Below, piece by piece: positions 1 through 17,957 of a DNA stretch of 17,979 bases. The number at the start of each line of letters is the position of its first letter. The stretch's first letter is position 1. The notes under the pieces are model-generated. The model was not told the origin of the DNA. It worked only from the letters and a program-made list of their open reading frames with translations, and searched no databases. Both the position numbers and the translations under genes were made by a program. This stretch comes from Candidatus Nanohaloarchaea archaeon (GTDB lineage: Archaea > Nanohalarchaeota > Nanosalinia > Nanosalinales > Nanosalinaceae): contig JBKHHG010000016.1 in NCBI GenBank assembly GCA_046539225.1, positions 1-17,979 on the forward strand, read 5' to 3'.

Positions 1-763
1 TGAAAAGAACTTTTGGAATCTCTTCCAGCAAATCAGTCGCCAGTAAACCGTTACCATATTTTTCAGCAGCTTTTTCACCCGCTTTTCCGCTTACCTTGGC
101 AGCTTTTACTGCGGCTTCTTCCTTGTCCATTCCCTGTGCAATCAGACCTGCGAGAACTCCTGTCAAAACGTCTCCTGTTCCTCCGACCGTCATGCCGGGG
201 TGGCCGGCCTCCACTTCTTCAACGCCTTCTTCCAAGTATATTTTATCGGTCGGGCCTTTCCTCAGGACCACGTTACCATTCTTCAAAAACGTGTCTAGCT
301 CGTCCTCTACCTCCTGGAACTCGCCTCTGTGCGGCGTCAAAACCGCATCTTCAACATCAGAAGGCCTTAAATTTCTGAGAGCGTCCGCATCAACCACCAT
401 TGGAGAATCAGCCCTCTGTAAAAATTCTTTGACAGCCTCAGCTTCTGCATCACCGATTCCAGGCCCAATAACGACTGCATCAGCCCATTCATCAAGCTTC
501 AAGGCCTGTTCGACAGCCTCTCCATCAAAATAGTCTGATCCAAAGCTTTCCACAATCAAGTTCTCCGAGAAACCCGCGACTACACCCCTCACCGAATCAG
601 AGGTTAGAACCCGAGCCAGATCACAGCCCGTCCTTAATGCAGCCTGGGCAGAAAGTGCGGGCGCACCAGTAAAATCAATGCTGCCGCCGATAACCGCTAC
701 CCTGCCGTTTTCTCCCTTGTGTGATTCTTTTTTTCTTTCAAGTTCCAAGGAATTTTTCTTCAT
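1..763 (-). CDS. nnrD: ADP-dependent NAD(P)H-hydrate dehydratase (YjeF C-terminal family), stand-alone, 3' end runs off the window
   Basis: Not in the ORF track; translated by hand from ATG at 763 with no stop to base 1: MKKNSLELERKKESHKGENGRVAVIGGSIDFTGAPALSAQAALRTGCDL...VIGPGIG...VVDADAL...LTPHRGEF...GHPGMTVGGTGDVLTG. These are the characteristic NnrD motifs. Confidence 0.93.
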   Translation of the reverse strand, partial: MKKNSLELERKKESHKGENGRVAVIGGSIDFTGAPALSAQAALRTGCDLARVLTSDSVRGVVAGFSENLIVESFGSDYFDGEAVEQALKLDEWADAVVIGPGIGDAEAEAVKEFLQRADSPMVVDADALRNLRPSDVEDAVLTPHRGEFQEVEDELDTFLKNGNVVLRKGPTDKIYLEEGVEEVEAGHPGMTVGGTGDVLTGVLAGLIAQGMDKEEAAVKAAKVSGKAGEKAAEKYGNGLLATDLLEEIPKVLF

Positions 764-781
764 AAATTCATCTTGGGTTTT

Positions 782-793
782 CTTTTTATTCAA
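782..793. promoter_or_regulatory. Probable TATA-like element in the 57-bp divergent nnrD/gap intergenic region
   Basis: TTTTTATT at 783-790 lies 31-38 nt upstream of the gap ATG (821). The minus strand reads TTGAATAAAAAG about 20-30 nt upstream of the nnrD ATG (763). Confidence 0.4.
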
Positions 794-801
794 GCTTACG
801 A

Positions 802-820
802 AATATCTACGCGTGATATT
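802..820. promoter_or_regulatory. Inverted repeat AATATC-N7-GATATT immediately before the gap start, candidate operator
   Basis: AATATC (802-807) and GATATT (815-820) are exact reverse complements; the spacer contains the palindrome ACGCGT (809-814). Confidence 0.4.
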
Positions 821-1843
821 ATGGTAAAAGTTGCTGTAAACGGGATGGGAACGATTGGTAAAAGGGTGGCGGAAGCCGTCAAAAAGCAGGAGGACATGGA
901 GTTGTTTGGTGTAGCCGACGTAGAACCGCACGGCGAGCTGAAAACTGTTCTCAGTGAGGAAGGAGCGCTTCACGGAACTTCCCTATACGGTTCGAACAGT
1001 GAGGGCGTGGAAAACCTCAAAGAGGACGGCATGATTGTAGAGGATAACCTGGAGAACGTTATAAATGAGATTGATGTTGTGGTGGATGCGACGCCGTCTG
1101 GCGTGGATGAAGTGAACAAGGAGAACCTTTACGAGCCGAACGATGTGAAGGCGATCTTCCAGGGCGGTGCAGGAGATATCGCGCCTGTCAGCTTCAACGC
1201 GAACGCCAACTACAAGGATGCGAGGGGAGCCGACTATGTGAAGGTGGTTTCGTGTAACACAACTTCTCTTTCGAGAACTCTGAAATCGATCGACTCGAGC
1301 TTCGGCATCGAACAGGCCACGGCCAACCTTGTCAGGAGAGGAGGGGACATACCGCAGGATGGGAGAGGACCCATAAATTCAACGGTACCTGTAACAAAAG
1401 TTCCCTCCCACCACGGACCTGACGTCCAGGCGGTGATGCCGGAACTGGATATCAAGACCCTCGCGGTGAAGGTACCCGTGACCTACGGACACGTTCACAT
1501 GGTAACTGTCGACCTGGAGAGGGATGTGACGACGGAAGAAGCACTGGAGGCTTTCCGGGGTTCGCCCCGTGTAAAGCTACTGGAGGCGGGTGACGGCTAC
1601 GATTCAACCGGCAAGGTCCACGAAAAGATGAGAGACCTGGAAAGGCCCAGAAGCGACATGCCGGAGGCAGGAGTATGGAAGGAAACAGTTACCGCTGACG
1701 GCGACAGGCTTCACTGGATCCACATGGTCCACCAGGAATCCATCGTCATTCCTGATAATGTCGACGCGATCCGTTCCATGTTCGGAATGACCGGGAAAGA
1801 AGAGAGCATCGAGAAGACAAACGAGGCGATGGGGATCGAATAA
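821..1843 (+). CDS. gap: Archaeal (class II) phosphorylating glyceraldehyde-3-phosphate dehydrogenase
   Basis: Begins MVKVAVNGMGTIGKRVA (Rossmann fold). Also has VVVDATP, IFQGGA, catalytic VVSCNTT, PSHHGPD, HQESIVIPDNVDAIR. The ATG at 821 is preferred over the track's TTG at 773. Confidence 0.95.
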   Translation: MVKVAVNGMGTIGKRVAEAVKKQEDMELFGVADVEPHGELKTVLSEEGALHGTSLYGSNSEGVENLKEDGMIVEDNLENVINEIDVVVDATPSGVDEVNKENLYEPNDVKAIFQGGAGDIAPVSFNANANYKDARGADYVKVVSCNTTSLSRTLKSIDSSFGIEQATANLVRRGGDIPQDGRGPINSTVPVTKVPSHHGPDVQAVMPELDIKTLAVKVPVTYGHVHMVTVDLERDVTTEEALEAFRGSPRVKLLEAGDGYDSTGKVHEKMRDLERPRSDMPEAGVWKETVTADGDRLHWIHMVHQESIVIPDNVDAIRSMFGMTGKEESIEKTNEAMGIE

Positions 1844-1852
1844 GTCTTTCCC

Positions 1853-2344
1853 CTACTTGTCCATCCAGGGATAATCATATATCACGTATTTCTTTCTTTT
1901 CTTATCGAATCCTACATTGTGTACTCCCACATCTACCCTCTTAGGGTCTATGCCTATTTCAAGAGCATCTCTTTTTACTCGACTGAAGAAATCATTGACC
2001 TCCTTTCCAACAGAAACATCAGTGTCCACGAGACGAGATACCAAGAACTCGCCGTCTTTAGTACAGTAAAACGCTGGGTTCAGGTCTCGTCCCAGTTCAG
2101 AATCTCTCAGCTCCATAAAAGTTTTATATTCTCTCATATTCCTTACCGCGCCTTCTTCATCTTTCGCAACTTTCAAGACCCTACCTTTTAACCGGATTTT
2201 AGCTTTTTCTCCCGATTCAGACATTATTAGCTTCCTCGCCTCCGAACCATCTACTATCCTGTAAACCCTCCTGTGAGAAGCATCTCCTATATTCTCAAGA
2301 TCAGGTTTACCTTTAATGCCAAAAATTCGGCTGAAGATACCCAT
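1853..2344 (-). CDS. Small protein-kinase-like (PKL fold) protein
   Basis: Ordered kinase motifs: Gly-loop-like IGDASHRRVY, beta3 Lys VLKVAK, alphaC Glu NMREY, catalytic loop DVGVHN (DxxxxN), DFG-like VIYDY. T-rich TATA-like element about 22-30 nt upstream. Confidence 0.6.
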   Translation of the reverse strand: MGIFSRIFGIKGKPDLENIGDASHRRVYRIVDGSEARKLIMSESGEKAKIRLKGRVLKVAKDEEGAVRNMREYKTFMELRDSELGRDLNPAFYCTKDGEFLVSRLVDTDVSVGKEVNDFFSRVKRDALEIGIDPKRVDVGVHNVGFDKKRKKYVIYDYPWMDK

Positions 2345-2446
2345 AACAAAGTTTTCTTAAGCCTAACTAAAAAATCCTCGTAAAACCAGCAGATACCTGC
2401 GAAGACAGGTGGGAAAGTTAAACTCTTTTTTACCAATAGTTTATCT

Positions 2447-3475
2447 ATGAACAAGAAAATCCTTCTTGTCGGCTGGGGTTATCCTCCGAAGATCGATGGA
2501 GGCCTTGACATCGCCGTGAAAGAGCTTTTTGAAGGCCTTGAATCCAGGAATGTGGATGTTGATCTGATGTTGCCGGCGGAGAGAGCCCCGGATAGAGAAA
2601 ATGTTGTGCCGGTTAAAGTAGAGGGAGACATGTTTTCCAAGGCGGAGCAGTTGAGCAGGGCGGCGGCGGAAAAGGCCTCAGAATACGATTTGATTCATAC
2701 GAACGACTGGTTTGGGGTTGAGGCGGGTTTCAAGGCCTCGAAGTATCAGGATGTTAAGTGGGTGTCAAGTTTTCACTCGTTGAGCTCTACGAGGAACAGG
2801 TCGCCCGAACCCCGGCTTGAAAAGCTGGAGAGGGTCGGAGCTGAAAAAGCGGACCATGTCACTGCTGTAAGCCAGAGGCTCGCGAATCAGGTAGAGAAGA
2901 GATACGGTAGAATACCCAGAGTAATTTACAACGGTTTTTCGAGGCCTGAGTCCAGCGATAAATCGTTAGAGTTTGAGTCGCCGAGTTTTTTCTTTGTAGG
3001 CCGGCATTCCAGCCAGAAAGGAATCGAACACTTGATCTACGGCTTCAAAAAGTTCAGGGAAAAAAACTCTGAAGGCAAGCTGGTTATCGGCGGCACAGGC
3101 CACATGAAAAAGTCTTTTGAAGATTTTGTAGAGATCCTTGGAATTGGAGAACACGTATTATTCGAGGGTTTTATCCCTGAAGAAGATCTGGAGGCCTATT
3201 ACAGGGCTGCGGATGTTTTTGTGTCTCCTTCTGTGGAGGAGCCTTTCGGCCTGACGATTTCAGAGGCCTTGAACTCCGGTACAAAGGTTGTATGCACGGA
3301 TAGTGGGATTAATGAGCTTTTGCAGCCTGAGGCCTTGACTCTTGTAGAGCCTGACTCGGATTCGATCGTGGAAGGGCTTGAAGAAGCTCTTGAGAAGGAT
3401 TTGCCGGAGTTTGAGAAGCGTTCGTGGAATAAGATGGTTGAAGAGTATATTCAGCTTTACAGAGGCCTATCTTAG
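2447..3475 (+). CDS. Glycosyltransferase family 4 (GT-B)
   Basis: GWGYPPKIDGGL, LIHTNDW, FHSL, FVGRHSSQKG, FVSPSVEEPFGLTISEA (E-x7-E motif). Confidence 0.92.
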   Translation: MNKKILLVGWGYPPKIDGGLDIAVKELFEGLESRNVDVDLMLPAERAPDRENVVPVKVEGDMFSKAEQLSRAAAEKASEYDLIHTNDWFGVEAGFKASKYQDVKWVSSFHSLSSTRNRSPEPRLEKLERVGAEKADHVTAVSQRLANQVEKRYGRIPRVIYNGFSRPESSDKSLEFESPSFFFVGRHSSQKGIEHLIYGFKKFREKNSEGKLVIGGTGHMKKSFEDFVEILGIGEHVLFEGFIPEEDLEAYYRAADVFVSPSVEEPFGLTISEALNSGTKVVCTDSGINELLQPEALTLVEPDSDSIVEGLEEALEKDLPEFEKRSWNKMVEEYIQLYRGLS

Positions 3476-3700
3476 GACTTCTACTGTGTCAGGAGTTCCT
3501 CTGTAAAATCCTGAGTAGCCTTCACTGGTTTTTAAGAGGCCTTGGCTGTTTTCGTGGTAGTAAGTGTCTTCTGATGTTTTCTGGTGTAGAGGGAGCAGTA
3601 TTCGCTCTTTTCCATCGTCTTCTATCCGTATGGCTGCTTTTTCCTCTGTTTTGATGCGGATCAGGGTCCCTTCAGGCCTTTTCTCTGTCTCGACTTCCAC
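3467..3700 (-). CDS. Small hypothetical protein (77 aa, GTG start), resembling small proteins in haloarchaeal glucan clusters (DUF7510-like, from memory)
   Basis: 3' part of track ORF 3467..4216. It fills the gap between GT4 and GH57: MEVETEKRPEGTLIRIKTEEKAAIRIEDDGKERILLP...GLLKTSEGYSGFYRGTPDTVEVLR. TTTAAAA lies 24-30 nt upstream of the GTG. Confidence 0.7.
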   Translation of the reverse strand: MEVETEKRPEGTLIRIKTEEKAAIRIEDDGKERILLPLHQKTSEDTYYHENSQGLLKTSEGYSGFYRGTPDTVEVLR

Positions 3701-3721
3701 ACTGTTAGTTTGGTCCCATCC

Positions 3722-3730
3722 AATTTTAAA
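3722..3730. promoter_or_regulatory. Shared bidirectional TATA box for the divergent small ORF and GH57
   Basis: AATTTTAAA, with palindromic core TTTAAA at 3725-3730, is centred about 27 nt from the GTG at 3700 and about 25 nt from the ATG at 3752. Confidence 0.55.
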
Positions 3731-3751: not shown

Positions 3752-4966
3752 ATGACTGATGTGACTCTGAGCTTTGAGGTTCACCAGCCTCACCGGCTCA
3801 GGACTGATGGAGTGAAGGAAGACGCTGAAACGCTTTACGACCGTTATTTTGACGATGAGATGAATGAGCATTTTTTCAAGGACGTGGCGGAGAACTGTTA
3901 CTTCCCCGCGACTGAGAGGCTTCTGCGTGAGGCGAAAAAGCACTCCGGCAACGGCAGGCCTTTCGTGGTCAACTTCTCGATCTCTACTTCCTGGATTGAG
4001 CAGGCGAAGAAGTATCATCCCGAGCTTATTGATATGATTAACCGTTTCCCGGATGATTCTATTGATTTTATCGGCCAGGCCTATCTCCATAGTTTGGCAG
4101 GCCTTTTCGAGGACAAGACGGAGTTCCGGCGTCAGTTGAACCATCACCGGGAGGTAATTGAGGAGACGTTCGGTGTAACTCCGAAGGTCATGACGAACAC
4201 CGAGCTGATCTACCACAACGAGATCGGTAAGATCGCGGCAGAGGAAGGCTATAACGGTATTTTTACGGAGGGTGTTGACAGGATTCTGGGATGGCGTTCG
4301 CCTAACGATGTGTATACTCAGCCGGAGTTCGTGACCGAGGATGGAAACTCTATACTTTTGAGGAACAGGGAGCTGACGGATGACGTAGGCTACCGTTTCT
4401 CAGCGGAGTGGTGGGATGAGTATCCGTTGACTGCGGAGAAGTACTCTCTCTGGCTTTCAGAGGCCTCGGGCCAGAACGTCAACCTTTTCATGGATTACGA
4501 GACCTTTGGAGAGCATCACTGGGAAGGCACCGGCATCCTCTGGTTTCTGGAGTCGCTGCCTGATGAAGTTTTGAAACACGATGACCTGGAGTTTGTTAAA
4601 GTGAGAGAGGCTGCGGACAAAGAACCGGTAGGAGAGTTCGATGCGTTCGAGTACAACACTGTTTCATGGGCGGATCAGGAGATGGACGCCTCTGCATGGC
4701 TCGGAAACCCGATGCAGAAGCTGCTTTTTGAAAAACTTCAGGAACTTGAGGATAAAGTCAAGGCCTTGGACGATGAAGAATACCTCGAGGTCTGGCGAAA
4801 GTTCCTGACCTCTGATCATCTTCACCACATCGCGACGAAGACGATGGATGACGGTTCGGTGCACAACTACTTCTCGTACTTTGACCATCCTCATGAAGGA
4901 TTTGCCTGTATAACCGAGCATCTGATGGACTTTCAGGAACATGTCGAGAAAAAGCTGAAAAGTTGA
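3752..4966 (+). CDS. Glycoside hydrolase family 57, alpha-amylase (AmyA)-like
   Basis: FEVHQP, AENCYFPA, AYLHSLA, NTELIY (nucleophile region), FMDYETFGEHHW (acid/base region), SWAD...AWLGN, LTSDH. Confidence 0.92.
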   Translation: MTDVTLSFEVHQPHRLRTDGVKEDAETLYDRYFDDEMNEHFFKDVAENCYFPATERLLREAKKHSGNGRPFVVNFSISTSWIEQAKKYHPELIDMINRFPDDSIDFIGQAYLHSLAGLFEDKTEFRRQLNHHREVIEETFGVTPKVMTNTELIYHNEIGKIAAEEGYNGIFTEGVDRILGWRSPNDVYTQPEFVTEDGNSILLRNRELTDDVGYRFSAEWWDEYPLTAEKYSLWLSEASGQNVNLFMDYETFGEHHWEGTGILWFLESLPDEVLKHDDLEFVKVREAADKEPVGEFDAFEYNTVSWADQEMDASAWLGNPMQKLLFEKLQELEDKVKALDDEEYLEVWRKFLTSDHLHHIATKTMDDGSVHNYFSYFDHPHEGFACITEHLMDFQEHVEKKLKS

Positions 4967-6658: not shown

Positions 6659-6691
6659 AAATTAAAGTTTGTCTAAGGCCTTTTTTATCTT

Positions 6692-7834
6692 TCACTCAAG
6701 GGCTTGGTTGTATATTCCTGTTGTCCATGCGCTGATCTGCTCCCAGCGGAAGTTGTCTTCAACTCTTTCACGTGCGTTGTCCCCCAGCCAGTCCGCCCAT
6801 TCAGGATCGTTCAACGCCCGGGTAACCTGGTGAGTGATCGAGTTGGAGTCCGCTGGATAGGTGTGAAGGCCTGTGTACTCATGGACGATAGTGTCTTTCA
6901 TCCCTCCTGTATAGCTTCCGACTGTTGCGGTGTTCGAGGCCGCCGCTTCCAGAGGAACAATTCCAAAAGGCTCGTAGACAGAAGGCGCGACCGTCATCTT
7001 TGCCTCTTTCATCAGCGAGAGAAGCTCGCTGTTAGAGACGTATCCGGGGAAGTGAACCTTGTCGCCCACCTGTTTCTTCGCAAGGCCTCTGTAATGCTCC
7101 GTGGCGCCGGAGCCGCACATCACAAACTTGGCTTCAGGCCTCTGATCGAGTATATGCGGCATCGCCTCTATCAGGTGGCCAGGCCCTTTCTGAGGATACA
7201 TTCTGCCGACAAACAGTATAATCTGCTCCCAGTCAAGCGCGTAACTCTCCCTCTGGAGATCTTTACTGTGGTCGTCGAACTTCTCAAGGTTGACGCCGTT
7301 CGGAATATAGTTTATCTTTTCTTCAGGTACTTCGTAGATGTGCTGAACCTCGTCGCAGAAATCCCTTCCAACAGTTATAACCTGCTCGGCCTCATATGTT
7401 CCAAGCCACTCCAGGTTGTGGATAGCCCGTTGATAATCAGAGTCAATACCGTCACGGCCTTTCTGCGTCGAGTGAACCGTGAAAACCATCGGAAGGCCTA
7501 AAGTCTTTTTTATACCCGTAGCGCCGGGCACAGCCATCCAGTCGTGGCCATGCACCAGGCCAAAGTCGTGGGTCTTGCTGAGCTCTATAGCCTTTTTCTC
7601 CATCCTGTCGCCGAGCGCCATAGCCCATGAAACAGTGTTGTCCGCGCCGTTATGCGACGGAACCCTGTGAATCTCCACGCCGTCACGGAACTCTTTCTCC
7701 TCTTTCTCGCCGAAAGTTATGACAACCGGAGAATGCCCCTGGGAAGCCATGGTCGTCGCAAGGTCCTCACAGTGCGCAGCTATACCTCCTGCCTTGTAAG
7801 GCGGGTACTCCCATGTAACGAAAAGAGGCCTCAT
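6692..7834 (-). CDS. Glycosyltransferase family 4 (GT-B), alpha-glucan related
   Basis: TWEYPPYKAGGIA, VHGHDW, TVHSTQKGR, IPNGV, FVGRMYPQKG, PSVYEPFGIVPLEA. AGGTGA SD upstream overlaps the previous gene's stop. Confidence 0.93.
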   Translation of the reverse strand: MRPLFVTWEYPPYKAGGIAAHCEDLATTMASQGHSPVVITFGEKEEKEFRDGVEIHRVPSHNGADNTVSWAMALGDRMEKKAIELSKTHDFGLVHGHDWMAVPGATGIKKTLGLPMVFTVHSTQKGRDGIDSDYQRAIHNLEWLGTYEAEQVITVGRDFCDEVQHIYEVPEEKINYIPNGVNLEKFDDHSKDLQRESYALDWEQIILFVGRMYPQKGPGHLIEAMPHILDQRPEAKFVMCGSGATEHYRGLAKKQVGDKVHFPGYVSNSELLSLMKEAKMTVAPSVYEPFGIVPLEAAASNTATVGSYTGGMKDTIVHEYTGLHTYPADSNSITHQVTRALNDPEWADWLGDNARERVEDNFRWEQISAWTTGIYNQALE

Positions 7835-7843: not shown

Positions 7844-8452
7844 TCACCTTTCAACATCGACTTCCTCTAAATCCAGTAGGTTTTCGTAAGTTTTTAAAAC
7901 CGTATGGCGCCATCCATCACCGAGAGGATCTACAACCTCTATTTTCTGCTCCGGAGCATCAAGATCGAACACGGCAGAGTTCCTAGTCGAATCCGAGTTC
8001 ACAAGTATCTTATCCGCATTGTAGCAGCCTTTCCACTCCAGCTCGGAGATAACCTCGGCATTAGGGCTCTCAAAACCTCTCTCATTCTCCGTTGAGTGAA
8101 GCGTTAAAACCACAGGAACCTCAAACCGCTGCTTGATAGCTGTAGCGCCCGGAACCGTCATCCAGTCATTCGCATGGATCACATCAAAATCCCTTTCCTC
8201 AAAGTACTGACGGGCCTTCTCCTTCATCTCATTATTAAGCATCATAGACCAGCTGTAGAGAGAATCCCCCTCGTAATGAAGCGGAACCCTCTCAACCTCA
8301 ACCCTGTCATCGACAGAGTAATACTCCTTATCATCAAAAGCCAGAATCAAGGCCTCACCACCCTCAGAAACCACCTTTTCGGCCAGAGCCTTCACATACT
8401 CTGAGACCTCATCGCCATCAACAAACTTCCGGGTCAAAAACAGTATCTTCAC
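7844..8452 (-). CDS. GT4 N-terminal (acceptor) domain-only protein, GTG start
   Basis: IHANDWMTVPGATAIK...TLHSTENER...LEW aligns with VHGHDWMAVPGATGIK...TVHSTQKGR...LEW of the next gene. It has no VGR..QKG or EPFG motif. The start overlaps the pgi stop (GTGA). Confidence 0.8.
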   Translation of the reverse strand: MKILFLTRKFVDGDEVSEYVKALAEKVVSEGGEALILAFDDKEYYSVDDRVEVERVPLHYEGDSLYSWSMMLNNEMKEKARQYFEERDFDVIHANDWMTVPGATAIKQRFEVPVVLTLHSTENERGFESPNAEVISELEWKGCYNADKILVNSDSTRNSAVFDLDAPEQKIEVVDPLGDGWRHTVLKTYENLLDLEEVDVER

Positions 8453-9594
8453 TCTCCAAACCTCGCCTCAAAACCTTTCTGCTTGCTTTTCTCGACATCA
8501 GGCTGGTTAAAAGGATCAACCCCTCTCAGCCATGACGAATAAACCGCCAAAAACTGCAGGAAAGCCATAAACCCTCCAACAGAACTATAACTAAACTCCT
8601 CAAGCTCTAACTCAATGAAAGGCCTGTCCTCAGACTCCAAGGCCTCTTTGACCCCTTGAGACTCGGCATTCAGCGATTCTTCATAGCTTAACATTCCAAA
8701 CTCTTCAAGCTTCCTGCCCCTCAACTCAACATCCTCAAGGCCTTCAGGAATTTTTAAGTCTTGGTGTTCATGCGTGGACTCAACGAAAACCGGCAGAACA
8801 TTGTCTCGCCCGCCGAACAGACGTTGATTTGTATGGTGCTGGTACTCAGGACCTAAATCGCCGTAAAAAGTCTGGCCCTCCCCTTTCTTGCAGACAGATT
8901 CGTGCATCAGCTGCACAAGCAGCGGATAAAACCCGAAAAGTCTCGTAGAGTAAAAAGGCGTCAGCACCTCGTTAAATCCACGGTTTTCAGCTTCCAAAAG
9001 CTGCTCAGCCATTTTCGAGGCCTTGTTAGGTTTTCCAGGCGCAAATCTTTTATGCATATCTCTGCCTCCTTCAAATATCGACCTTATATCGAGGCCTATT
9101 AGAGACGCGGGTGCGAGAGCCGTCTCTGAAAGGCCTGTGAATCTTCCGCCGATCTCTGGATGATCAACGGTCTCAAGGCCTTTTCTTTCAGCTATGGTCT
9201 TCAGAGGCGAGTCATGATCAGTTGTCAACGGCATTACTTCGTAGCCTTTTTCAAGGAAGTAAAGTGTAGACTCTATTACACCTGTAGTTGATCCTGACTT
9301 GCTTACAGGCATTACAAGCGTTTCTTCCTTCTTCACAGAAGATTCTACGTGTCTCAGGTAGCCTGGCTCCACCGTTGTAACTATTTCAATGTTTTTATCG
9401 TGTTGATCGCGGAATGCATAGGTTAAAGCTCTGAAGCTTGTTACTGAGCCTCCGTTCCCGATCAGGATAAGGTTTTCGAAGTCTTTTTCCAGGCCTTCAA
9501 GCTTTTCTATATCCGGTTTGTGAAGCGAGAAGTAAGGCCTTGGCTTGTCAAAGCTGCTGTAATCCGTTTCAATCGTTGAATCAATGTTTATCAA
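8449..9594 (-). CDS. pgi: Glucose-6-phosphate isomerase (SIS-domain PGI family), TTG start
   Basis: IGNGGS, VSKSGSTT, IGGRFT, QLMHESVCK, GPEYQHH, VDPFNQPDVEKSK. Confidence 0.88.
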   Translation of the reverse strand: MINIDSTIETDYSSFDKPRPYFSLHKPDIEKLEGLEKDFENLILIGNGGSVTSFRALTYAFRDQHDKNIEIVTTVEPGYLRHVESSVKKEETLVMPVSKSGSTTGVIESTLYFLEKGYEVMPLTTDHDSPLKTIAERKGLETVDHPEIGGRFTGLSETALAPASLIGLDIRSIFEGGRDMHKRFAPGKPNKASKMAEQLLEAENRGFNEVLTPFYSTRLFGFYPLLVQLMHESVCKKGEGQTFYGDLGPEYQHHTNQRLFGGRDNVLPVFVESTHEHQDLKIPEGLEDVELRGRKLEEFGMLSYEESLNAESQGVKEALESEDRPFIELELEEFSYSSVGGFMAFLQFLAVYSSWLRGVDPFNQPDVEKSKQKGFEARFGE

Positions 9595-11333
9595 CTGTTT
9601 TTCACCGCCATTCTATGCGCATCCCTGTAGTTTTCCCCGAGTTTTTCCCAGGAGGTCAGCTGGGCAAGCTTTCTTGCATTATGTTTTCTCTCGGTTATCT
9701 CTGTCTTGTCAAACGACAGGAACTCTTCTATAATTCTTGCAAGATCCTCTACAACTTCTGATCTTTCCCTGTGCCTTCTTTCAAGTATTTCTATGCCTTT
9801 ACGTTCCGATGACTCTACCTGATTCATCAAAAACTGGCCAAAGCCCGCCAAATCTGTAGTGAGAGATAGTGCCCCGTTTGCAGCCGTCTCTACCGGGGTG
9901 TAGCCCCAGGGTTCGTAGTAGCTTGGGAAAAATCCTGCGCTTGATGCCACGACCATATCTTCGTATTCCATTGACAGAAGCTTGTCGCCTACGGAAAGAT
10001 ATGTTGGATAGAATACTGCTTTTACCCTGTCATCTTCAGAGTTGGTTATGCCTTCTTTTTTCAAGGCATTGACTATTTCATCGTTTTCGTAGTTTAATTC
10101 GAAGGCTGATAGCGGCGGGCCTTCGCTGTCTTTCCTGTAGAAGTTTTGCTGCAAGAATTCAAGCTGTTCTGAATCGTTTAATTCTTTTTCAAGCTCTTTT
10201 ACAGGGCTTTCGCCTGAGGCCACGGAGTTTACGAATTTTTTTCGGAGTTCCGGTATTTTTGACTCGATGTAGTCTTCGAGCTCTTCGTATAAAGATTTGT
10301 TTTCGAGGACCTCCATGTCCGGGCCTTTAACGTCGGAGGGTACGAGGAAGAAGAAGTAGAGGTCGTCTCCAGGCCTTTCGTTGATCTTTCCGAGGGCTTC
10401 GATCAGTATGTCGAAGCCTTTGTTGTGGAATTCGTATCTTCCGGAGGTGAAGAATACTCGGGGGTCGTTTTCAAGGTTGACCGGGTAGTAGGGGTCGAAG
10501 TACGCATTCAGGAATTCTTTGACTTTGTCCTTTTTCTGTTTGTGGTTTACGGAGAGATCCTCCAGGCTGGGGTAGTCCTCCACATTAAAGCCGTTTGGCA
10601 GGATCTTGTCCGGTTCTATTCCGTGGATTGCTGAGGCCTCTTGCCCTGTTACATCGCTGACAGTTGTGAATACATCGGCTTCTCTCGCCGCCGCCTGCTC
10701 CATATCATGTTTTTCCTTGACGCCGAGCTCCTCTGCAAGGCCTTCACTGTCTATATCTCCGTCTTCAACCATCGAGATTAAATCGTAGTCGGAGTTGGAC
10801 AGCGCTCTTCCAAGTACTGTGGCGTGAGTCGTGAAGACTGTAGGAGAGTCCACGTTGAAGATGGGGGATGATGAAAGCCATTCGTGGAGGTGTACGACAA
10901 AGTCCTGGTCTTTTTCAAGCTCCTGTATAAGCCGTGAGACTGCGTAACCCCATTTAACCGGTTCATCGAAGTCTGGGCCTGCGTTTATCGAGTCGATGCC
11001 GTGTTTCTCCCAGTAGCTCTGCTTTATCTCGTTTACATCTTTTTCAAGGCCTGAGGCATCGACTAAAACTGTCCTGGGCGATCCTTCGACTTCCCAGACT
11101 CCATAGTAGCATTCTATGCCTTCTTCCCGGAGTTTCTGGAAGGCCTCGCTGTACGGGTTTTCGCGGGGTGCGAACTCTTTCCGCATCGATTCCTCGTCGA
11201 AGTAGCCGACTGTCAGGTAGCCATCCCCGTAGAAGTCGATCATCTTTGAGCTCTTGGAGCTCAGGACCTGGTAGATTCCTCCGACCTTGTTCGCCACTTC
11301 GAAGGATACCTCCACCACCTCAAGATCTCTCAT
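9591..11333 (-). CDS. Glycogen synthase, GT3 (eukaryote-type) family
   Basis: EVSFEVANKVGGIY, HLHEW, FTTHATVLGR, FTTVS, SGRYEFHNKGFD, DRVKAVFYPTYL, FPSYYEPWGYTPVE. Confidence 0.93.
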   Translation of the reverse strand: MRDLEVVEVSFEVANKVGGIYQVLSSKSSKMIDFYGDGYLTVGYFDEESMRKEFAPRENPYSEAFQKLREEGIECYYGVWEVEGSPRTVLVDASGLEKDVNEIKQSYWEKHGIDSINAGPDFDEPVKWGYAVSRLIQELEKDQDFVVHLHEWLSSSPIFNVDSPTVFTTHATVLGRALSNSDYDLISMVEDGDIDSEGLAEELGVKEKHDMEQAAAREADVFTTVSDVTGQEASAIHGIEPDKILPNGFNVEDYPSLEDLSVNHKQKKDKVKEFLNAYFDPYYPVNLENDPRVFFTSGRYEFHNKGFDILIEALGKINERPGDDLYFFFLVPSDVKGPDMEVLENKSLYEELEDYIESKIPELRKKFVNSVASGESPVKELEKELNDSEQLEFLQQNFYRKDSEGPPLSAFELNYENDEIVNALKKEGITNSEDDRVKAVFYPTYLSVGDKLLSMEYEDMVVASSAGFFPSYYEPWGYTPVETAANGALSLTTDLAGFGQFLMNQVESSERKGIEILERRHRERSEVVEDLARIIEEFLSFDKTEITERKHNARKLAQLTSWEKLGENYRDAHRMAVKNS

Positions 11334-11346
11334 ATAAATGACTGCC

Positions 11347-11427: not shown

Positions 11428-13176
11428 ATGTACCACCTGAAGAAACCTGCCGGGAAGACGGGCACGGTCTCGAACCTCGACGCTTTCATCCATAGAGGCC
11501 TCGATACCGGATTCAGCTCGAAGTGGATGGGTGTCTGGAAACCGCCGTTCAAACTTCTTGACTACTACGCATACAAGATCAACGGCATCTGGCTGGATGA
11601 AGAGAGCCTGGATGCTGTGGATTATGGTGATGATATCACGTACTACCATGAAACCGAATCCCTTCACGTACAGGAGAAGATTTCGGCTCCTCAAGGCCTC
11701 CCCGGTGTAAAATCCGAGTTAATGCTTCAGAACAATGAGGATGAAAAAAAGGCGGTGCATATCGTGCTGGAGGCCGGAGTAGACATAAGGGAGAAAAACG
11801 TTGATATCCCGGAGCAGGATTACAGCGTTAGAAGGGACAGCTCCAAGATAGAGGTTGAGTCAGGCAAAAAGCTTTCGATCACATCCGACAGAGAACTACA
11901 TAACTCGGGCGAGGCCTACGTAAAACAGCATTTCCCCGGCGAAAAACAGGAGTGCCTCGTACCGGGAGAGACCGGAGTAATGATCGAACTGGAGCCAGGA
12001 GAAGACAAGAAAGTCGAGTTCCGGTTCACCTCTGGAGAGGCCTCAGACCTTGTAATAGAGAAACAGGACAACAGGGTTGAAGGCAGCCAGAAAAGAGTTT
12101 TCGAGGCCTCAGTCAGAAGCATGGAGAACCTGATATACGACAGGGAAGGCCTCGGAATTATCGCAGGGCATCCATGGTTCCAGAGCTACTGGGCGCGCGA
12201 CACCTTCTGGACCCTACTGGGTTTGATTGACGCAGGCTACTTCAGAGAAGCAGAGAAGATACTGGAAAACTTCGCGGAAAGAGGCCTACCCGGTAAAATC
12301 AACCTTGGAGGAAAAGATGAGGAAACCGGCAGAAACGATACCTACCCACTGTACATAATCGCCGCCGATAAACTCAAACGCCACCACAAAATCTCGGAAA
12401 AGATCGAGGACGGAATGGAAGAGGCCTTCTCCAGGCTCGAGCTGGATAACGGCGTAGTACAACATAACCCGGAGGGGACGTGGATGGACACGCTTGAAAG
12501 GCCTGGAGCCGTCGACGTACAGTGCCTCTGGCTTGAAGCCGCGGAGATAATGGGGGAAAAAGAGGATAAACTTGAAGAAGGCCTTGAAAAGTTTGAAAAC
12601 AATCATATCAAAGACCATTTAGGCGAGGAACCATCCCACACTGTTAATCCTGCGGTAGGCCTCATGTTTGAGCAGTTTGACGAAAAGTATCTTTCGAAGA
12701 TCAACGCAGAGTTTTCATCGCTTTACGGTGCCAGAACCCGTTCATTCACCGATCCAGGCTACGAGTCATCCGGCTACCACACCGGGAGCACCTGGGGCCT
12801 AACAAGCTGCTGGGCCGCAGCCGCCAACCTCCGGAACGGCAAAACCACTCAAGGCCTCAACTTTATAGAAAAGTTCTCAGGCTTCCTCGACCGGAACCAG
12901 CCCGGCGCCTTACCAGAATTAGTCGACTCCGAGACAGGAGAGAGCCTTGGATGCGTTGAACAGGCCTGGAGCGCTGGAATGACAGTCCACGTCATAGACT
13001 CATACCTCTTCGGCATAGAGATCGACAAAGAAAAGATAAAAATCGATCCAGCGCCAGCATACACCGGTGAAAGACATGGAAAACGTGTGGGCGACAACTA
13101 CATTGACATAAAGGTGGAAGACGGCAAAGCCGAAATCCTGAACGATCCAGGCCTTGACAGAGAGGTTTTAACGTGA
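11428..13176 (+). CDS. Amylo-alpha-1,6-glucosidase (glycogen debranching enzyme, GDE_C/GH133-like)
   Basis: IIAGHPWFQSYWARDT, GTWMD, YHTGSTW, LPEL, GCVEQAWS; N-terminal beta-rich domain. Confidence 0.88.
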   Translation: MYHLKKPAGKTGTVSNLDAFIHRGLDTGFSSKWMGVWKPPFKLLDYYAYKINGIWLDEESLDAVDYGDDITYYHETESLHVQEKISAPQGLPGVKSELMLQNNEDEKKAVHIVLEAGVDIREKNVDIPEQDYSVRRDSSKIEVESGKKLSITSDRELHNSGEAYVKQHFPGEKQECLVPGETGVMIELEPGEDKKVEFRFTSGEASDLVIEKQDNRVEGSQKRVFEASVRSMENLIYDREGLGIIAGHPWFQSYWARDTFWTLLGLIDAGYFREAEKILENFAERGLPGKINLGGKDEETGRNDTYPLYIIAADKLKRHHKISEKIEDGMEEAFSRLELDNGVVQHNPEGTWMDTLERPGAVDVQCLWLEAAEIMGEKEDKLEEGLEKFENNHIKDHLGEEPSHTVNPAVGLMFEQFDEKYLSKINAEFSSLYGARTRSFTDPGYESSGYHTGSTWGLTSCWAAAANLRNGKTTQGLNFIEKFSGFLDRNQPGALPELVDSETGESLGCVEQAWSAGMTVHVIDSYLFGIEIDKEKIKIDPAPAYTGERHGKRVGDNYIDIKVEDGKAEILNDPGLDREVLT

Positions 13177-13802
13177 TAGTAATCAACTTCAAGACCTACG
13201 AGCATTCCATGGACTGGGAGGCCAGAAAGCTTTCAAAGCTATGCAAAAAGGCCTCTGAAAAAACCGGTGAAAGAGTTGTATCGGTGCCTCAGCATCAGGA
13301 TCTTCGTGTATGCAGCGGAGAAGTGTTCGCACAGCATATAGACCCTGTTAAACCCGGCAGCCATACAGGAAGCGTTCTCGCGGAGGCTGTTGAAAGATCC
13401 GGAGCCTCAGGTACGCTTTTGAACCATTCAGAGAAGAGACTGGAGAGAGAAGTGCTGGAAGAGTCCATCGAGAGAGCAAAGGATTCAGGCCTTGAAACCG
13501 TGGTATGCGCCCAGTCGCCGGATGAATGCAGGGAGCTAAGCCGTTTAAACCCGGACTACATAGCCTTTGAGCCTCCAGAGCTGATAGGCGGCGACACATC
13601 GGTGTCAGAGGCGGAGCCTGAAATGATTGAAGAGGCCGTGGAAGAATCTGAGGTCGATGTCCTGACAGGCGCAGGTATTAAAAGCCGTGAAGACGTTGCA
13701 AAAAGCATTGAACTCGGCACGGAAGGAGTACTGGTGGCTTCCGGAGTTGTAAAAGCCGAAAACCAGTACGAGGAGATACTGGAGCTCTGTAAAGGCCTAT
13801 GA
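13173..13802 (+). CDS. tpiA: Triosephosphate isomerase, archaeal type, GTG start
   Basis: INFKTY, AQH, GSHTG, LLNHSE, AFEPPELIG, GAGI, GVLVAS. Confidence 0.96.
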   Translation: MIVINFKTYEHSMDWEARKLSKLCKKASEKTGERVVSVPQHQDLRVCSGEVFAQHIDPVKPGSHTGSVLAEAVERSGASGTLLNHSEKRLEREVLEESIERAKDSGLETVVCAQSPDECRELSRLNPDYIAFEPPELIGGDTSVSEAEPEMIEEAVEESEVDVLTGAGIKSREDVAKSIELGTEGVLVASGVVKAENQYEEILELCKGL

Positions 13803-15070
13803 AAGAAATCTGGAGAAATAGGTACAGTGAAATGGCTGAAAGGCCTGAGATCGGAGGTTTCCAGGTTTTAACCGCTTTCAACACCAATATCGACCGCAGA
13901 ATCAATCTTGAAGAGCTTGACTGGGAGTTAGAGGACGCGGAGAAGCTTGAAGAAGTAAAAAGTATTGAAGAAGTCAAAAAGACTTTGAAATACGCTGTAG
14001 AAAACGGTAAAAACATGGAGGTGGACGCGTCAGGCCTGAAGACCGGTATCGACGGCGGGAAAGCGGCTGTAGGCGGCCAGGCAGGGATTATGGCGAACTT
14101 TCTCTCAGGCCTGAACGGCAGCGTAACACTCTACACACCTCTCCTTTCGCAGAAAATGGCGGATATGATCGATGACAGGGTGCTGCATCCCTACTTTGAA
14201 TCGGAGTTCACGCTGAAAAACGTCAGAGACTCGGCGAACACCGACAGAACAAAGGAAAACATTATAATAGAGTTTTCAAGGCCTCAAACCGGGCGTTTAA
14301 TCCTTTCTGACAAGTTAAGAGGTTTCGGACCGTATTTCAGATCTGGTATAGAGGATAACCTCGATAAAATAGATGAAAACATTCAGGGCGCGTTGCTGTC
14401 AGGCTTTCAAAACGTTAAAGGCAATAGAGAGGTTAAAATAGAGAAGGCAAAGCGCCAGATCTCGAGGTTTGACAGTAGAAAGCATCTGGAGCTTGTTGGA
14501 GCGGATAGAAAGCTTTTTCACTTGATTGGACGGGAAGTTCTGCCAGAGGTTGAAAGCGTTGGCATGGATGAGACCGAGGCCTTGAAGCTTGCGGAGATGT
14601 CGGATGAAAGCTACGGTGAGCCTCTTCACATCGGCGAGGCTTACAATCTTATGAAGGAGCTGTTGGAAGAGGCTGAGCTGGAGAGATGCCATCTTCACAC
14701 GTATCGTTACCATCTTATCGTGGCCGAGGAGAGTTATCCGGTTGAATTGGAGGTTTTGAGGGATGGTATGGTGTTTGGAGAGGTTGCAGCGTTGTTAAGA
14801 GCGGATACTGGCGAGATACCATCGATTGAGGAGTTTGAAGGCCTTGATTTTGAGGATAAGCACGTGAAGAATCTGGATGAACTGGAGGATTTTCAGGAGT
14901 TCTTTGATCTGGATAACTTTGTTGAAGAGGGCAAGGCCTTGGTGGAGGATTACAAGGTATGTGCGGTTCCGACCGTGATTCATGAAGACCCCGAGGTTTT
15001 GGTGGGTATGGGTGATTTGATCAGTTCCGGGGCCTTCGCCTACGAGCTTAGCAGAGGGAGCGGACAGTAG
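13799..15070 (+). CDS. ADP-dependent glucokinase/phosphofructokinase (PfkC family)
   Basis: AFNTNID, VGGQAGIMAN, LLSGFQ, HLEL, SVGMDETE, HLHT, C-terminal VGMGDLISSGAF. Substrate specificity cannot be resolved by eye. Confidence 0.88.
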   Translation: MKEIWRNRYSEMAERPEIGGFQVLTAFNTNIDRRINLEELDWELEDAEKLEEVKSIEEVKKTLKYAVENGKNMEVDASGLKTGIDGGKAAVGGQAGIMANFLSGLNGSVTLYTPLLSQKMADMIDDRVLHPYFESEFTLKNVRDSANTDRTKENIIIEFSRPQTGRLILSDKLRGFGPYFRSGIEDNLDKIDENIQGALLSGFQNVKGNREVKIEKAKRQISRFDSRKHLELVGADRKLFHLIGREVLPEVESVGMDETEALKLAEMSDESYGEPLHIGEAYNLMKELLEEAELERCHLHTYRYHLIVAEESYPVELEVLRDGMVFGEVAALLRADTGEIPSIEEFEGLDFEDKHVKNLDELEDFQEFFDLDNFVEEGKALVEDYKVCAVPTVIHEDPEVLVGMGDLISSGAFAYELSRGSGQ

Positions 15071-16355
15071 ACTCTACTTTTCCCAGTATTTCTTCGAGGT
15101 CTTCTTCTGTGTCGGCCTCGCATCTGACGCTCATCTTTTCCTCGGTGCTTGAAGGCCTGACCAAGGCCCAGCCTTTTTCGAACTCTATCTTTACGCCGTC
15201 TTTGGTTGTCATGTTCAGGTCGGAGAACTCTTCTTTGACTCCTTCAATTACTTTCTGCTTCCTGTCTTCTGGACAGTCAATCCTCAGCTCTGGGCTGACA
15301 GGATAATCCGGGTACTCCTCCAAGCGGTCGATCTCTCCCAGGTCGACGATTTCGCACATTAGACAGGCTGCGAGAATACCGTCATCCCATGGAAAACCGA
15401 GGAACGGGAAGTAGTAATGGCCTGAGAGCTCTCCGGCAAAAACAGCATCTTCCTCATGTATTATCTCGGATATAAACGTGTGACCGACTCTGCTCTCAAG
15501 GGCTTCGCCTCCTCTCTCAGTGATTTTTTCTTTCACAAGCTTTGAAGCCCTTAAATCATGCACAATCTTGCCCTTCTTTTCTTCCAAGGCTCTCTCGGCG
15601 AAAAGCGCTATAACCTCGTCTTCAGAGATGTATTCTCCGTTATAGATAAATCCTGCCCGGTCTCCATCCCCGTCAAACAGTATTCCCAGGTCTTCACCAT
15701 TCATCTCTTTTCTCAATGCCTCCTGGGCCTCCTTTTTTGTAGGATCTGACAGATGGTTTGGGAAGTTACCATTAACTTCTTCATTCACGTTTTTAACTTT
15801 GCAGCCGATTGCTTCAAGTACTTCAGGCCCTATCTCTCCGGTTACACCGTTTCCATAGTTCGCCGCCACCTCTATATCGACGTCGAAGATCGAGGATAGC
15901 TCTTCTATATAGGCCTGATCCATGTTTTTCTCTTCTACAGCTGCTTCACCAGATTCAAAGGCCTCTTCTTCGTAGATCTCTTCTATCTGCTTCATGCCTT
16001 TTTTGCGGGACATTGCAAGGCCTCCGCTCAGTGTAAACTTGAAGCCTGTGTACTCTGGCGGGTTATGGGATGCTGTGACGACGGCTCCATGCTCGAAGCC
16101 GAGTCTATCCACCACAAAGTAGAGTACAGGAGTCGCAGTCATTCCTATATCTACTACATCGCTCCCTGTGGAGGTAATTCCTTTTATGAATGCCTCTGTT
16201 ATTTTTTCGGCTTGTTTTCTACCGTCTCTCGCCACTAAAACTTTTTCGTCGCCTATAAATGTGCCGTAGGCCTTTCCGACTTTTTCAGCTTCTTTTTCAG
16301 AGATCTGCTCCGGGTACTTGCCTCTCAGGTCGTACGCGTGGAAGAAATCAGTCAT
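15048..16355 (-). CDS. Phosphoglucomutase/phosphomannomutase
   Basis: FHAYDLRG, TASHNP (phosphoserine), FDGDGDR (metal loop), GELSGHYYF, LVRPSSTE. Confidence 0.95.
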   Translation of the reverse strand: MTDFFHAYDLRGKYPEQISEKEAEKVGKAYGTFIGDEKVLVARDGRKQAEKITEAFIKGITSTGSDVVDIGMTATPVLYFVVDRLGFEHGAVVTASHNPPEYTGFKFTLSGGLAMSRKKGMKQIEEIYEEEAFESGEAAVEEKNMDQAYIEELSSIFDVDIEVAANYGNGVTGEIGPEVLEAIGCKVKNVNEEVNGNFPNHLSDPTKKEAQEALRKEMNGEDLGILFDGDGDRAGFIYNGEYISEDEVIALFAERALEEKKGKIVHDLRASKLVKEKITERGGEALESRVGHTFISEIIHEEDAVFAGELSGHYYFPFLGFPWDDGILAACLMCEIVDLGEIDRLEEYPDYPVSPELRIDCPEDRKQKVIEGVKEEFSDLNMTTKDGVKIEFEKGWALVRPSSTEEKMSVRCEADTEEDLEEILGKVESTVRSLC

Positions 16356-16392
16356 AATATGGTGTATTACTCGGTGTTTTTAGCTCTTGCTG

Positions 16393-17154
16393 TTAAAGCG
16401 GGGTAAGTTCTTTGAACCTTGTCTTGAGTCTTTCGCCCACCCCTCTCTTAGGCGGTTCGTCGCCTTTTACCCTGTGGGCGACGTTCTCTATCTTTTTGGA
16501 TACTCTGGAGTCAGGCCTGTAGCTGACAACCGGTTCCCTGAGCGCGATGCCTTCCCTGACGTGTTTGTGGTCCGGCACCCTTCCGATTATTTCGGTTTCC
16601 ATCAGATCTTTGACGTCATCATCTGAAACCTCTGATTTTTCGCCTCTCACGCCGTTCAGCACAAGGCCTAAGACTTCTCTGTCAAGATGTTCCGCGATTT
16701 TCTTGGCGCCGAGACAGTTTGTGAGGGATGGAAGCTCCGGCTCCGATACGAGCAGGACTTCATCTGAGGCCTCGATGCTTGCCTGAACCTCGTCGTTTAT
16801 TCCCGCAGCAGAGTCAATAAGTACAAAGTCTTTGTCTCCGAGGAACTCGACCAGTGAGTGCTTCAGGTTTTCGGCGTTACCCTGGAAATCAAGTATGTTG
16901 GCTGGAAGTACTTCTACACCCTCGCTGTGTTTGGTGACTGCCTGGGTGATATAGGCCTCTCCCTGCAGTACGTCGTTCAGCGAGATTTCCTGGAAGCCGA
17001 GTCCCATGTGCTGGGATACGTTGGCTCCGGAGAAGTTTCCATCGATTATAAGCACTTCGTGTCCCTGCTGTGCAAGGGATGTTCCTATGTTGACCGACAT
17101 TGTTGTCTTTCCTACGCCTCCCTTGCCGGATATGACTGAGATAACTCTGGTCAT
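16393..17154 (-). CDS. minD: MinD/ParA-family ATPase (second paralog)
   Basis: Deviant Walker A SGKGGVGKTT, LIDSAAG, VLN, C-terminal basic helix. The ATG is at 17154; the track's 17157 start is a TTG one codon earlier. Confidence 0.85.
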   Translation of the reverse strand: MTRVISVISGKGGVGKTTMSVNIGTSLAQQGHEVLIIDGNFSGANVSQHMGLGFQEISLNDVLQGEAYITQAVTKHSEGVEVLPANILDFQGNAENLKHSLVEFLGDKDFVLIDSAAGINDEVQASIEASDEVLLVSEPELPSLTNCLGAKKIAEHLDREVLGLVLNGVRGEKSEVSDDDVKDLMETEIIGRVPDHKHVREGIALREPVVSYRPDSRVSKKIENVAHRVKGDEPPKRGVGERLKTRFKELTPL

Positions 17155-17189
17155 CAAGTTAAAGTTCCCGGTACAGGAATAAAAAGGTT

Positions 17190-17957
17190 CTACCTGAACT
17201 TCGAGACAATCCTGTCCAGAAAACCGTTCTCGCCAAGGTCCGGCTCGTATTCAAGTCCATGCACGTCTGCGGCTATCTTCTTGAAACGCTCCGAGACATG
17301 GTGATCCGGCGCGTGGTGGACAACCGGTTTCTTGGCCGCGAGGGCCTCCTGCATCTTTTCATGGTGCGGAACCTCCATCAAGACCTCATACCCTATCATC
17401 GACTCAACCTCCTCAGTACTTAACTCAGAGTCATGGCCTTTGACCATGTTCAATACCACCCCTGTAACTTCAGTACCGGCCTCTTCAGCAATATTGACAG
17501 TCTTCAACGCATCGGTCACAGCAGGAAGATTCGGGTTAGTCACGACCATGACCTCGTCCGAGGCCTCAATCGCATTTATAGATTCGTTTCCAAGGCCTGC
17601 AGCGGAGTCAATCAGTACAAAGTCGGGTTCGCCTACAGCGTCAAGCAACACATCAGAAAGGTTTTCAGGACTGGTATCCTTCAAGTCCTCGACAGATAGA
17701 CCCGCGGGAACAACTCGAAGCCCTGAATCATGGATGTACATCGCTTCAGTAATATGCGCATCGCCCTTTAAAACATCGTGAAGAGTCTTTGGATAAAGCG
17801 GGATTCCTATATGAAATCCAAGGTTTGGATTGGTAAGGTTAGCGTCCAGTACGACCGTATCAGCTCCGAAATGCGTCAAAGCTGCTCCAAGGTTTGATGT
17901 AACCGTCGTTTTCCCTACTCCTCCTTTACCACTGCTCACACATACCAGACGGGTCAT
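17190..17957 (-). CDS. minD: MinD-family ATPase (first paralog)
   Basis: SSGKGGVGKTT, DANLTNPNL, LIDSAAGLG, TNPNLPAVTDA, and a C-terminal amphipathic membrane-targeting helix GFLDRIVSKFR. Confidence 0.9.
   Translation of the reverse strand: MTRLVCVSSGKGGVGKTTVTSNLGAALTHFGADTVVLDANLTNPNLGFHIGIPLYPKTLHDVLKGDAHITEAMYIHDSGLRVVPAGLSVEDLKDTSPENLSDVLLDAVGEPDFVLIDSAAGLGNESINAIEASDEVMVVTNPNLPAVTDALKTVNIAEEAGTEVTGVVLNMVKGHDSELSTEEVESMIGYEVLMEVPHHEKMQEALAAKKPVVHHAPDHHVSERFKKIAADVHGLEYEPDLGENGFLDRIVSKFR

Follow-up and report, generated by a model that had tools for sequence, protein, structure and literature searches.

Genome-wide enrichment of the palindrome AGGCCT in a nanohaloarchaeon and some of its relatives

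Why would an archaeal chromosome be filled with a single six-base palindrome? The question is raised by a stretch of 17,979 nucleotides, referred to here as the window, which is contig C16 of a genome of a Candidatus Nanohaloarchaea archaeon of the family Nanosalinaceae (G000; 606,781 bases, 38 contigs, 82% complete) and which carries a glycogen and glycolysis gene cluster plus two MinD/ParA genes. An earlier note, made from the sequence alone, had pointed to the dispersed hexamer AGGCCT in this window and had proposed a system resembling the highly iterated palindromes (HIPs) of cyanobacteria, in which a genome-wide process, such as a methyltransferase with Vsr-like repair, creates or retains the sites. 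Our analysis upholds a genome-wide, lineage-specific process that acts on DNA and keeps AGGCCT as in HIPs, and does not uphold the route through a methyltransferase and Vsr; two further options of the note, a chromatin protein or a self-mark, may still apply. Throughout, rich genomes are 13 of the 50 from this family (12 that maintain the sites, plus G003, discussed below), and poor genomes are the other 37.

AGGCCT in the window and across the genome

The window holds 83 exact copies of AGGCCT, the first at position 362 and the last at 17598 (4.6 per kb), the number that the earlier note had counted by hand. In 200 dinucleotide shuffles of the window the mean is 5.26 (standard deviation 2.35, maximum 12), giving an enrichment of about 16-fold; the roughly 20-fold figure first given is recovered genome-wide when base composition alone is the reference. 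Genes on both strands contain 82 of the 83 sites, distributed over the three frames as 15, 30, and 37, and one site is intergenic; the note had likewise placed sites in genes on both strands and in a spacer. The other 15 hexamers of the form NGGCCN occur 0 to 9 times each.

The same holds for the entire genome. G000 contains 2,850 copies (4.7 per kb), 20.2-fold more than expected from base composition (order 0) and 16.4-fold more than under a first-order model, and the next most enriched palindrome reaches only 2.5-fold. All 38 of the 38 contigs carry AGGCCT, at 1.7 to 5.8 per kb, and the other GGCC-containing NGGCCN hexamers stand at 0.3 to 1.6 times expectation, as ordinary as they had looked by eye. 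Shuffling synonymous codons (20 runs on our own gene calls) leaves 414 to 494 coding copies versus the 2,547 observed, with the three frames enriched 5.3-, 5.3-, and 6.5-fold over the shuffle. The note had named loss of the signal under such a shuffle, equal enrichment of all GGCC hexamers, and confinement to this locus as outcomes that would speak against its proposal; none of the three was found. Enrichment is 17.1-fold in the complete rich genome G005 and 9.8-fold in a second one, G022 (340 kb sampled). Divergent, co-oriented, and convergent spacers are enriched 40- to 53-fold in G000 and G005 and 12- to 16-fold in G022, with dips at the positions of start and promoter signals, 0 to 15 and 30 to 45 bp upstream of the start codon. 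Because spacers of all three orientations are enriched, the effect acts on DNA. An RNA-level motif is ruled out by the equal enrichment of divergent spacers, a codon or protein artifact by the synonymous shuffle and peptide-context counts, and a longer repeat or mobile unit by flanks that have no consensus. As a separate observation, CTAG stands at 0.14 of expectation in G000 and is avoided far more than in G005 or the poor genome G024.

The bias is both strong and even. Places where the protein sequence permits AGGCCT are filled in 79% of cases in G000, 73.5% in G005, and 59.5% in the sampled third of G022, and in 3.5% in G024. G000 and G005 also have roughly twice as many such compatible places, and the compatible peptides are raised accordingly (RP, 1.65 versus 0.79; [QKE]A[FLSYCW], 2.01 versus 0.98). 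In one-step contexts, in which five bases already agree with AGGCCT and the sixth can vary synonymously, G000 completes the site in 94 to 96% of cases (GGC, 1179/1241; GCC, 931/991; CCT, 449/473; NAG, 931/974; NNA, 375/390), compared with 27 to 54% elsewhere, and G024 has no such bias. The odds ratios are 18 to 109 over all six positions and every base in G000 (0 to 2 in G024), with 18 to 69 for transitions, 28 to 109 for transversions, and 20 to 26 for C-to-T neighbors, which are not the largest. All neighbor bases are purged evenly, and a T:G repair bias is therefore excluded. Completion is almost independent of gene conservation and reaches 96% (76/79) in conserved genes that are small and basic, though few sites lie in foreign islands or in genes with very high expression.

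Neighboring sites exclude each other at short range. In three genomes, pair density at 9 to 26 bp is 0.58 to 0.64 of that at 45 to 134 bp, compared with 0.92 to 1.17 for control hexamers, and the logistic term for a neighbor within 25 bp is -0.51 ± 0.25 in G000, -0.78 ± 0.17 in G005, and -0.37 ± 0.40 in G022. Spacing is otherwise near random (variance/mean of 0.72 to 0.84 outside long gaps). The G005 periodogram has peaks of 9.3 (349 kb) and 8.5 (52 kb) over a chance maximum of about 6.3, site-poor islands being uncorrected. Changes in the outer bases are tolerated more in G005 and G022 than in G000 (NGGCCT, 1.4 to 2.1 in G000, 2.0 to 4.8 in G005, and 3.6 to 5.1 in G022), as for a reader whose specificity evolves. 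Outside the hexamer there is only a weak preference for T 3 to 4 bases before the site and A after it, symmetric on the coding strand and present also in spacers, and no longer repeat unit. Among the 40 strain variants listed (there are 394 more), none falls at a site and 1.1 would be expected, a comparison with no power.

Distribution among relatives and decay of the sites

Across the 50 family genomes (sizes rounded), AGGCCT density is 2.0 to 4.7 per kb in 12, about 0.95 in G003, and about 0.05 to 0.7 in 37; by genus, and with G000 included, the trait-positive genomes number 5/5, 3/3, 3/3, and 2/6. None of 20 genomes from other families of the order has the trait (0 to 8 close doublets versus 54 to 458 in the 12). 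A named Nanohaloarchaea metagenome-assembled genome (MAG) has 74 AGGCCT in 18 kb, while 36 other glycogen synthase loci have 0 to 3.8 times expectation. On an rpoA1 tree the rich genomes lie in one branch interspersed with four poor ones, so that three changes are needed, and a tree that forces all rich genomes into one group is weakly rejected (p-AU 0.037; 25 rows, after removal of five that were short or on long branches). These trees are quick searches of a single gene, and they weakly suggest that the trait, found in 13 of 50 genomes, does not mark one clade. In the poor relatives no substitute palindrome was found in the loci examined (2.6 to 32 kb each).

G003, the sister of rich G002 on the rpoA1 tree, retains 5 of 23 G002 sites, a share that matches control hexamers (0.20), and most losses are by single changes; in the rpoA1 frame all 6 G002 sites are one-mismatch variants in G003. 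Rich pairs retain 21/37, 15/27, and 29/39 sites (56 to 74%; controls, 0.19 to 0.25), although high equilibrium fill would likewise give retention above that of controls. G003 completes 10 of 26 one-step contexts, like a poor genome, whereas the 12 maintaining genomes complete 73 to 97%. As judged from these comparisons, G003 no longer maintains AGGCCT and its sites are decaying; the trait evidently needs upkeep.

Several observations bear on gene exchange and on the poor genomes. A tRNA-synthetase-like gene of G000 (C31:4398-5423) with a single site is 93.5% identical to its counterpart in poor G024 and 68.6% to that in G005, and over 268 genes site density drops as similarity shifts toward G024 (Spearman, -0.29); site density may thus mark recent gene replacement between nanohaloarchaea. 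G024 itself avoids GGGCCC (0.07), related GGNCC words, and ACGT, and its C5 methyltransferase scores close to that of G020, another very poor genome. The trait might be kept out by a restriction system whose target overlaps GGCC. A viral contig of 10.1 kb and 41% GC (L265) has 17 dispersed AGGCCT and 74 GGCC, with the site completed in 23 of 28 one-step contexts; as it does not encode a halophile-type acidic proteome, it is possibly a separate case of a like kind. Among 80 viral loci with flanks listed, none resembles a halophile virus with dispersed AGGCCT.

Candidate enzymes, candidate readers, and competing explanations

No DNA methyltransferase family tracks the trait in the sequences searched. 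C5 methyltransferases occur in 1 of 13 rich genomes versus 15 of 37 poor ones, and a Dam-type enzyme occurs in 0 of 13 rich genomes in a search of all 50. Among the 13, the beta-class N4/N6 enzymes give one full-length match (G022) and one marginal match (G045); the remaining weak matches fall under the cutoff in rich and poor genomes alike. Complete G005 has just two methyltransferases, an HsdM of type I, with 0 sites over 1.6 kb, and an enzyme resembling type IIG, with 5 sites over 3.7 kb. Neither has a motif match in G000; the motif scan covered G000, G005, G024, and a portion of G022. A search of G000 (82% complete) did not find Vsr. The C5, Dam, beta-class, and Vsr counts together do not support the co-distributed methyltransferase with Vsr-like repair that the earlier note suggested. 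MutS was not found in 5 of 5 genomes searched, and ComEC (PF03772) was found in 0 of 5, including complete rich G005 and G022 (10 of 14 control rings were positive). Dnd phosphorothioation exists in a GGCC type; DndD (TIGR03185) had no match over the cutoff in 5 rich genomes, nor in 14 controls, so that this search had no positive control. NucS is present in 46 of 50 genomes, rich and poor, and in 30 loci shows no diagnostic residue (best column, 7/10 versus 3/20). G005 also has an extra HhH-GPD glycosylase with no orthologue in G000.

Gene subtraction yielded 38 G000 genes that match G005 but match G024 far more weakly or not at all. It used one poor genome (G024) and 340 kb of G022; G024 may retain the factor, so a gene can be missed. 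The RadA-like gene of a PolB2 cassette was rejected (28 of 50 genomes, and missing from complete G022 and G053), as were the DnaG-like, SWIM, 69-amino-acid winged helix-turn-helix, metallophosphoesterase, RHH-nucleotidyltransferase, and MazG-like genes as co-distributed candidates; about 30 other subtraction genes, mostly for metabolic or membrane proteins, were left out of these tests. A RadA-like gene at G000 C4:15346-16296 is discordant (82.6% identity between G000 and G005, 65 to 68% to G024), and at L077:5001-9333 and G000 C22:2921-7384 a Cdc6 paralogue adjoins a RadA-like gene, a small gene, and a PolB2-like polymerase. The Pfam scan covered 293 of the 395 G005 proteins missing from G024, the 102 left out being set aside for a hydrophobic stretch (90), length (6), or other reasons (6), and 150 of 252 small shared proteins were scanned. 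The chromatin inventory includes histones, Alba, and ScpAB; each of the 50 genomes has 2 to 5 histone-fold matches, of which the main histone alone was aligned across genomes.

One lead came from an unannotated protein of 158 amino acids whose gene lies between grpE and the gene for the main histone (G000 C17:2843-3319). The protein is 80 to 94% identical in 27 of 30 genomes searched, has no Pfam, NCBIfam, or PDB match, and was not found in viral contigs. At residue 92, just before a putative recognition helix, 9 of 10 rich genomes encode Leu and 16 of 16 poor genomes encode Lys. Of 1,583 columns that do not vary among poor genomes, this one ranks first, and another column of this protein also scores high (His to Asn, 7/10). 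In 31 dereplicated metagenome lineages (loci of at least 2 kb) Leu goes with richness in 9 and Lys with poverty in 17, against 1 with Lys and rich and 4 with Leu and poor or intermediate; this set overlaps the genome set, and kin are not independent. The Leu alleles do not form one clade (p-AU, 0.02 for protein and 0.003 for DNA), and only Lys or Leu occurs in the homologues matched there (55/59). The idea that this is a winged-helix-like reader in which the Lys-to-Leu change switches on AGGCCT binding, so that, with no role for methylation, a single residue makes lineages rewrite about 3% of the chromosome and part of the proteome, reversibly, is nonetheless doubtful. The Lys-Gly-Leu codons spell AGGCCT in all 9 rich Leu genomes, so Leu may be the motif's product; 5 of 423 sites common to G000 and G005 likewise replace a G024 residue within fully conserved flanks; distant homologues have a hydrophobic residue there (Leu, Tyr, or Ile; 4/4); and the fold is only a lead, with TM scores of 0.43 to 0.48 to helix-turn-helix clusters, below the bar of the Atlas. 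A Leu held or created by the motif is the simpler reading, one that explains without extra assumptions the two exceptions, Lys in G010, which is rich, and Leu in G003, whose sites are decaying. On that reading the force would be seen acting on an otherwise invariant residue; if instead the switch were real, this would be the first named reader of a highly iterated palindrome outside the methyltransferase model.

Enrichment, uniformity, short-range exclusion, lineage-specific outer-base tolerance, the decay in G003, and the missing enzymes are what we observed directly. Our tentative preference is that selection for binding by a chromosome protein, a symmetric sequence reader, favors each site locally. 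AGGCCT would be the target of a two-fold symmetric, sequence-reading DNA-binding factor of these nanohaloarchaea, most likely a chromosome-organizing protein that works with no classical methyl mark. Wherever it lies, an added site would be favored at fixation by odds of about 20- to 100-fold, equivalent to weak selection with 2Ns of about 3 to 4.5 per site; one placed within about 25 bp of another would add less, as a protein footprint would have it; the genome would fill nearly every protein-permitted place and bend protein sequence to make more; and loss or change of the factor would let the sites decay. We infer here the protein binding itself, the dimer state, the benefit to chromosome organization, and selection rather than biased conversion as the force that fixes sites. 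Several points weigh against this preference. No AGGCCT-binding protein was found among the candidates examined: eight from the G000-plus-G005-minus-G024 subtraction failed co-distribution, and neither the main histone (30 loci) nor NucS has a diagnostic residue. Many of the family genomes (37 of 50) do without the trait. In the strictest test the short-range exclusion stands out in G005 but is weaker in G000 and falls short of significance in G022; the one-step dip in G000 is clear only at 6 to 15 bp (53/62, compared with 140/146 at 15 to 25 bp), and beyond 25 bp there is almost no saturation with density. Close pairs may be disfavored as hairpins, but control inverted repeats are not disfavored.

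A neutral molecular drive predicts that lack of saturation and the 96% completion at least as naturally. In such a drive a short-patch, noncanonical pathway acting on heteroduplexes from replication errors, or from gene conversion between chromosome copies or relatives, would keep the strand that spells AGGCCT with no benefit and even at a cost to proteins. Uniform completion and conserved positions are expected under it as under selection for binding, and completion regardless of gene conservation, the doubling of compatible peptides, and a trait that is dispensable and decays all suit it. NucS handles mainly transition mismatches, unlike the pattern here, in which transversion neighbors are purged at least as strongly; that enzyme is common to rich and poor genomes, and MutS, as noted, was not found. 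A reader that chooses the strand would still be required, and none was found. In favor of NucS is its presence in nearly all genomes together with the 5- to 6-bp patch within which it is reported to work in mycobacteria, near the scale of the exclusion zone (PMC11551744). On balance we regard neutral drive as possible, and as less probable than selection for binding. A signal for uptake or self-recognition when DNA passes between cells, as in Neisseria and Haemophilus or in the role of HIP1 in transformation, is unlikely given the gene inventory: it would fit that uptake sequences of Pasteurellaceae and Neisseriaceae double tripeptides and are missing from recently acquired genes, both of which hold here (PMC2817400), and that HIP1 is described as improving transformation (10.1101/2024.09.10.611283), but ComEC was not found even in complete rich genomes, and with one site per 210 bp any fragment already has many, yet each is favored about 40-fold and unsaturated beyond 25 bp. 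Equally hard to credit, and if anything more so, is an AGGCCT or GGCC methyltransferase with Vsr-like or methyl-directed repair, whether the symbiont's own or supplied by a haloarchaeal host. Cyanobacterial HIPs are reported to contain the sites of co-occurring methyltransferases (PMC4390886), AGGCCT methylation is described from a bacterial restriction system (PMC12128166), and a nanohaloarchaeon has been proposed to have passed a methyltransferase to its host (PMC11001535); against these stand the enzyme counts given above, the site-poor DNA of both G005 enzymes, and C-to-T neighbors that do not have the largest odds ratios. A divergent enzyme, or one that the host supplies, may have escaped these counts.

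Genes of the window and relation to known iterated motifs

The earlier note placed the responsible gene outside the window, and no candidate gene was found within it. A site-free stretch that the note had not remarked on, about 2 kb at 508 to 2499, covers a GAPDH gene (821-1843, plus strand) and an adjoining open reading frame (1853-2344, minus strand); about 9 AGGCCT would be expected and 0 are present, and both one-step contexts in the GAPDH gene are unfilled. Because contigs from two metagenome runs break and depth halves around 700 to 1840, this stretch is probably strain-variable, recently replaced DNA. A GT4 glycosyltransferase gene (2447-3475, plus) has 9 sites in all three frames, among them those at 2500, 2673, and 2942 that the note had cited as examples, and is followed by a GH57 glycoside hydrolase gene (3752-4966, plus; 5 sites). 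The sole intergenic site (6676-6681) lies within the 33-bp spacer 6659-6691, which precedes a second GT4 gene (6692-7834, minus; 5 sites). The gene at 8449-9594 (minus), which from its motifs we take to be PGI-like and which has no Pfam match at E of ≤1e-8, has 9 sites, and the amylo-alpha-1,6-glucosidase (debranching) gene (11428-13176, plus) has 14, both in agreement with the first counts. Between them is the glycogen synthase gene (9591-11333, minus; 5 sites), whose nearest named relative is that of the Nanohaloarchaea MAG mentioned above, at 63% identity; the remaining 36 of 37 loci are at 27 to 39%. Genes for triosephosphate isomerase and an ADP-dependent sugar kinase, with 3 and 7 sites, respectively, share 13173-15070 (plus), followed by a phosphoglucomutase/phosphomannomutase gene (15048-16355, minus; 5 sites) and two tandem MinD/ParA-family ATPase genes (16393-17957, minus; 4 and 2 sites), for which there is no evidence of AGGCCT reading.

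Uptake sequences are longer, nonpalindromic words of competent bacteria; AGGCCT shares with them the doubled peptides and the absence from recently acquired genes, but it is palindromic, has only six bases, and is denser, and ComEC was not found in the genomes searched. A further likeness is to Dcm/Vsr very-short-patch repair and the Mig.MthI glycosylase, in which oligomer counts can be reshaped by repair acting locally at a short site that contains C. Those systems depend on a C5 methyltransferase and are limited to T:G mismatches; here, in contrast, every neighbor base is purged with no selective loss of C-to-T neighbors, and the C5 and Vsr enzymes are missing where searched.

The closest likeness is to HIPs. 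HIP1 is GCGATCGC, with GGCGCC reported as an alternate HIP in Calothrix PCC 7103 (PMC4390886), and the octamer CAGGCCTG, which contains AGGCCT, has been noted in Synechococcus PCC 6312 (PMC5861425). Like a HIP, AGGCCT is a short, dispersed, hyperabundant palindrome present in all frames and in spacers, unexplained by codon use, retained between genomes above control words, and patchy among relatives. It differs in being archaeal, denser (2.0 to 4.7 per kb versus about 0.5 to 2.5 given for HIPs), and subject to short-range exclusion, in having no co-distributed methyltransferase and neither MutS nor ComEC where these were searched, and in the poor relatives, which show no substitute palindrome in the loci examined. 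It behaves like a HIP but lacks the methyltransferase feature, and we therefore do not class it as a member. Main texts on nanohaloarchaeal methylomes report GDGCHC, with GGCC unmentioned there (PMC11001535, PMC10266531). No publication on archaeal AGGCCT abundance was found, supplements and most subscription journals aside, and the sole AGGCCT match concerned Alcanivorax; the saturation with AGGCCT is real, strong, and apparently unpublished.

The origin and role of highly iterated palindromes are described as having been open since HIP1, for over three decades (PMC13756078). The leading accounts call for a methyltransferase, MutS-type repair, or competence; these parts were not found, where searched, in archaea of about 1,100 genes that show the phenomenon. 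AGGCCT is a form of the HIP phenomenon that is new in lacking the expected enzymes. Because the trait is on, off, or decaying in close relatives, its cause is findable by comparison. The density of sites, in turn, flags recent gene replacements among these symbionts.

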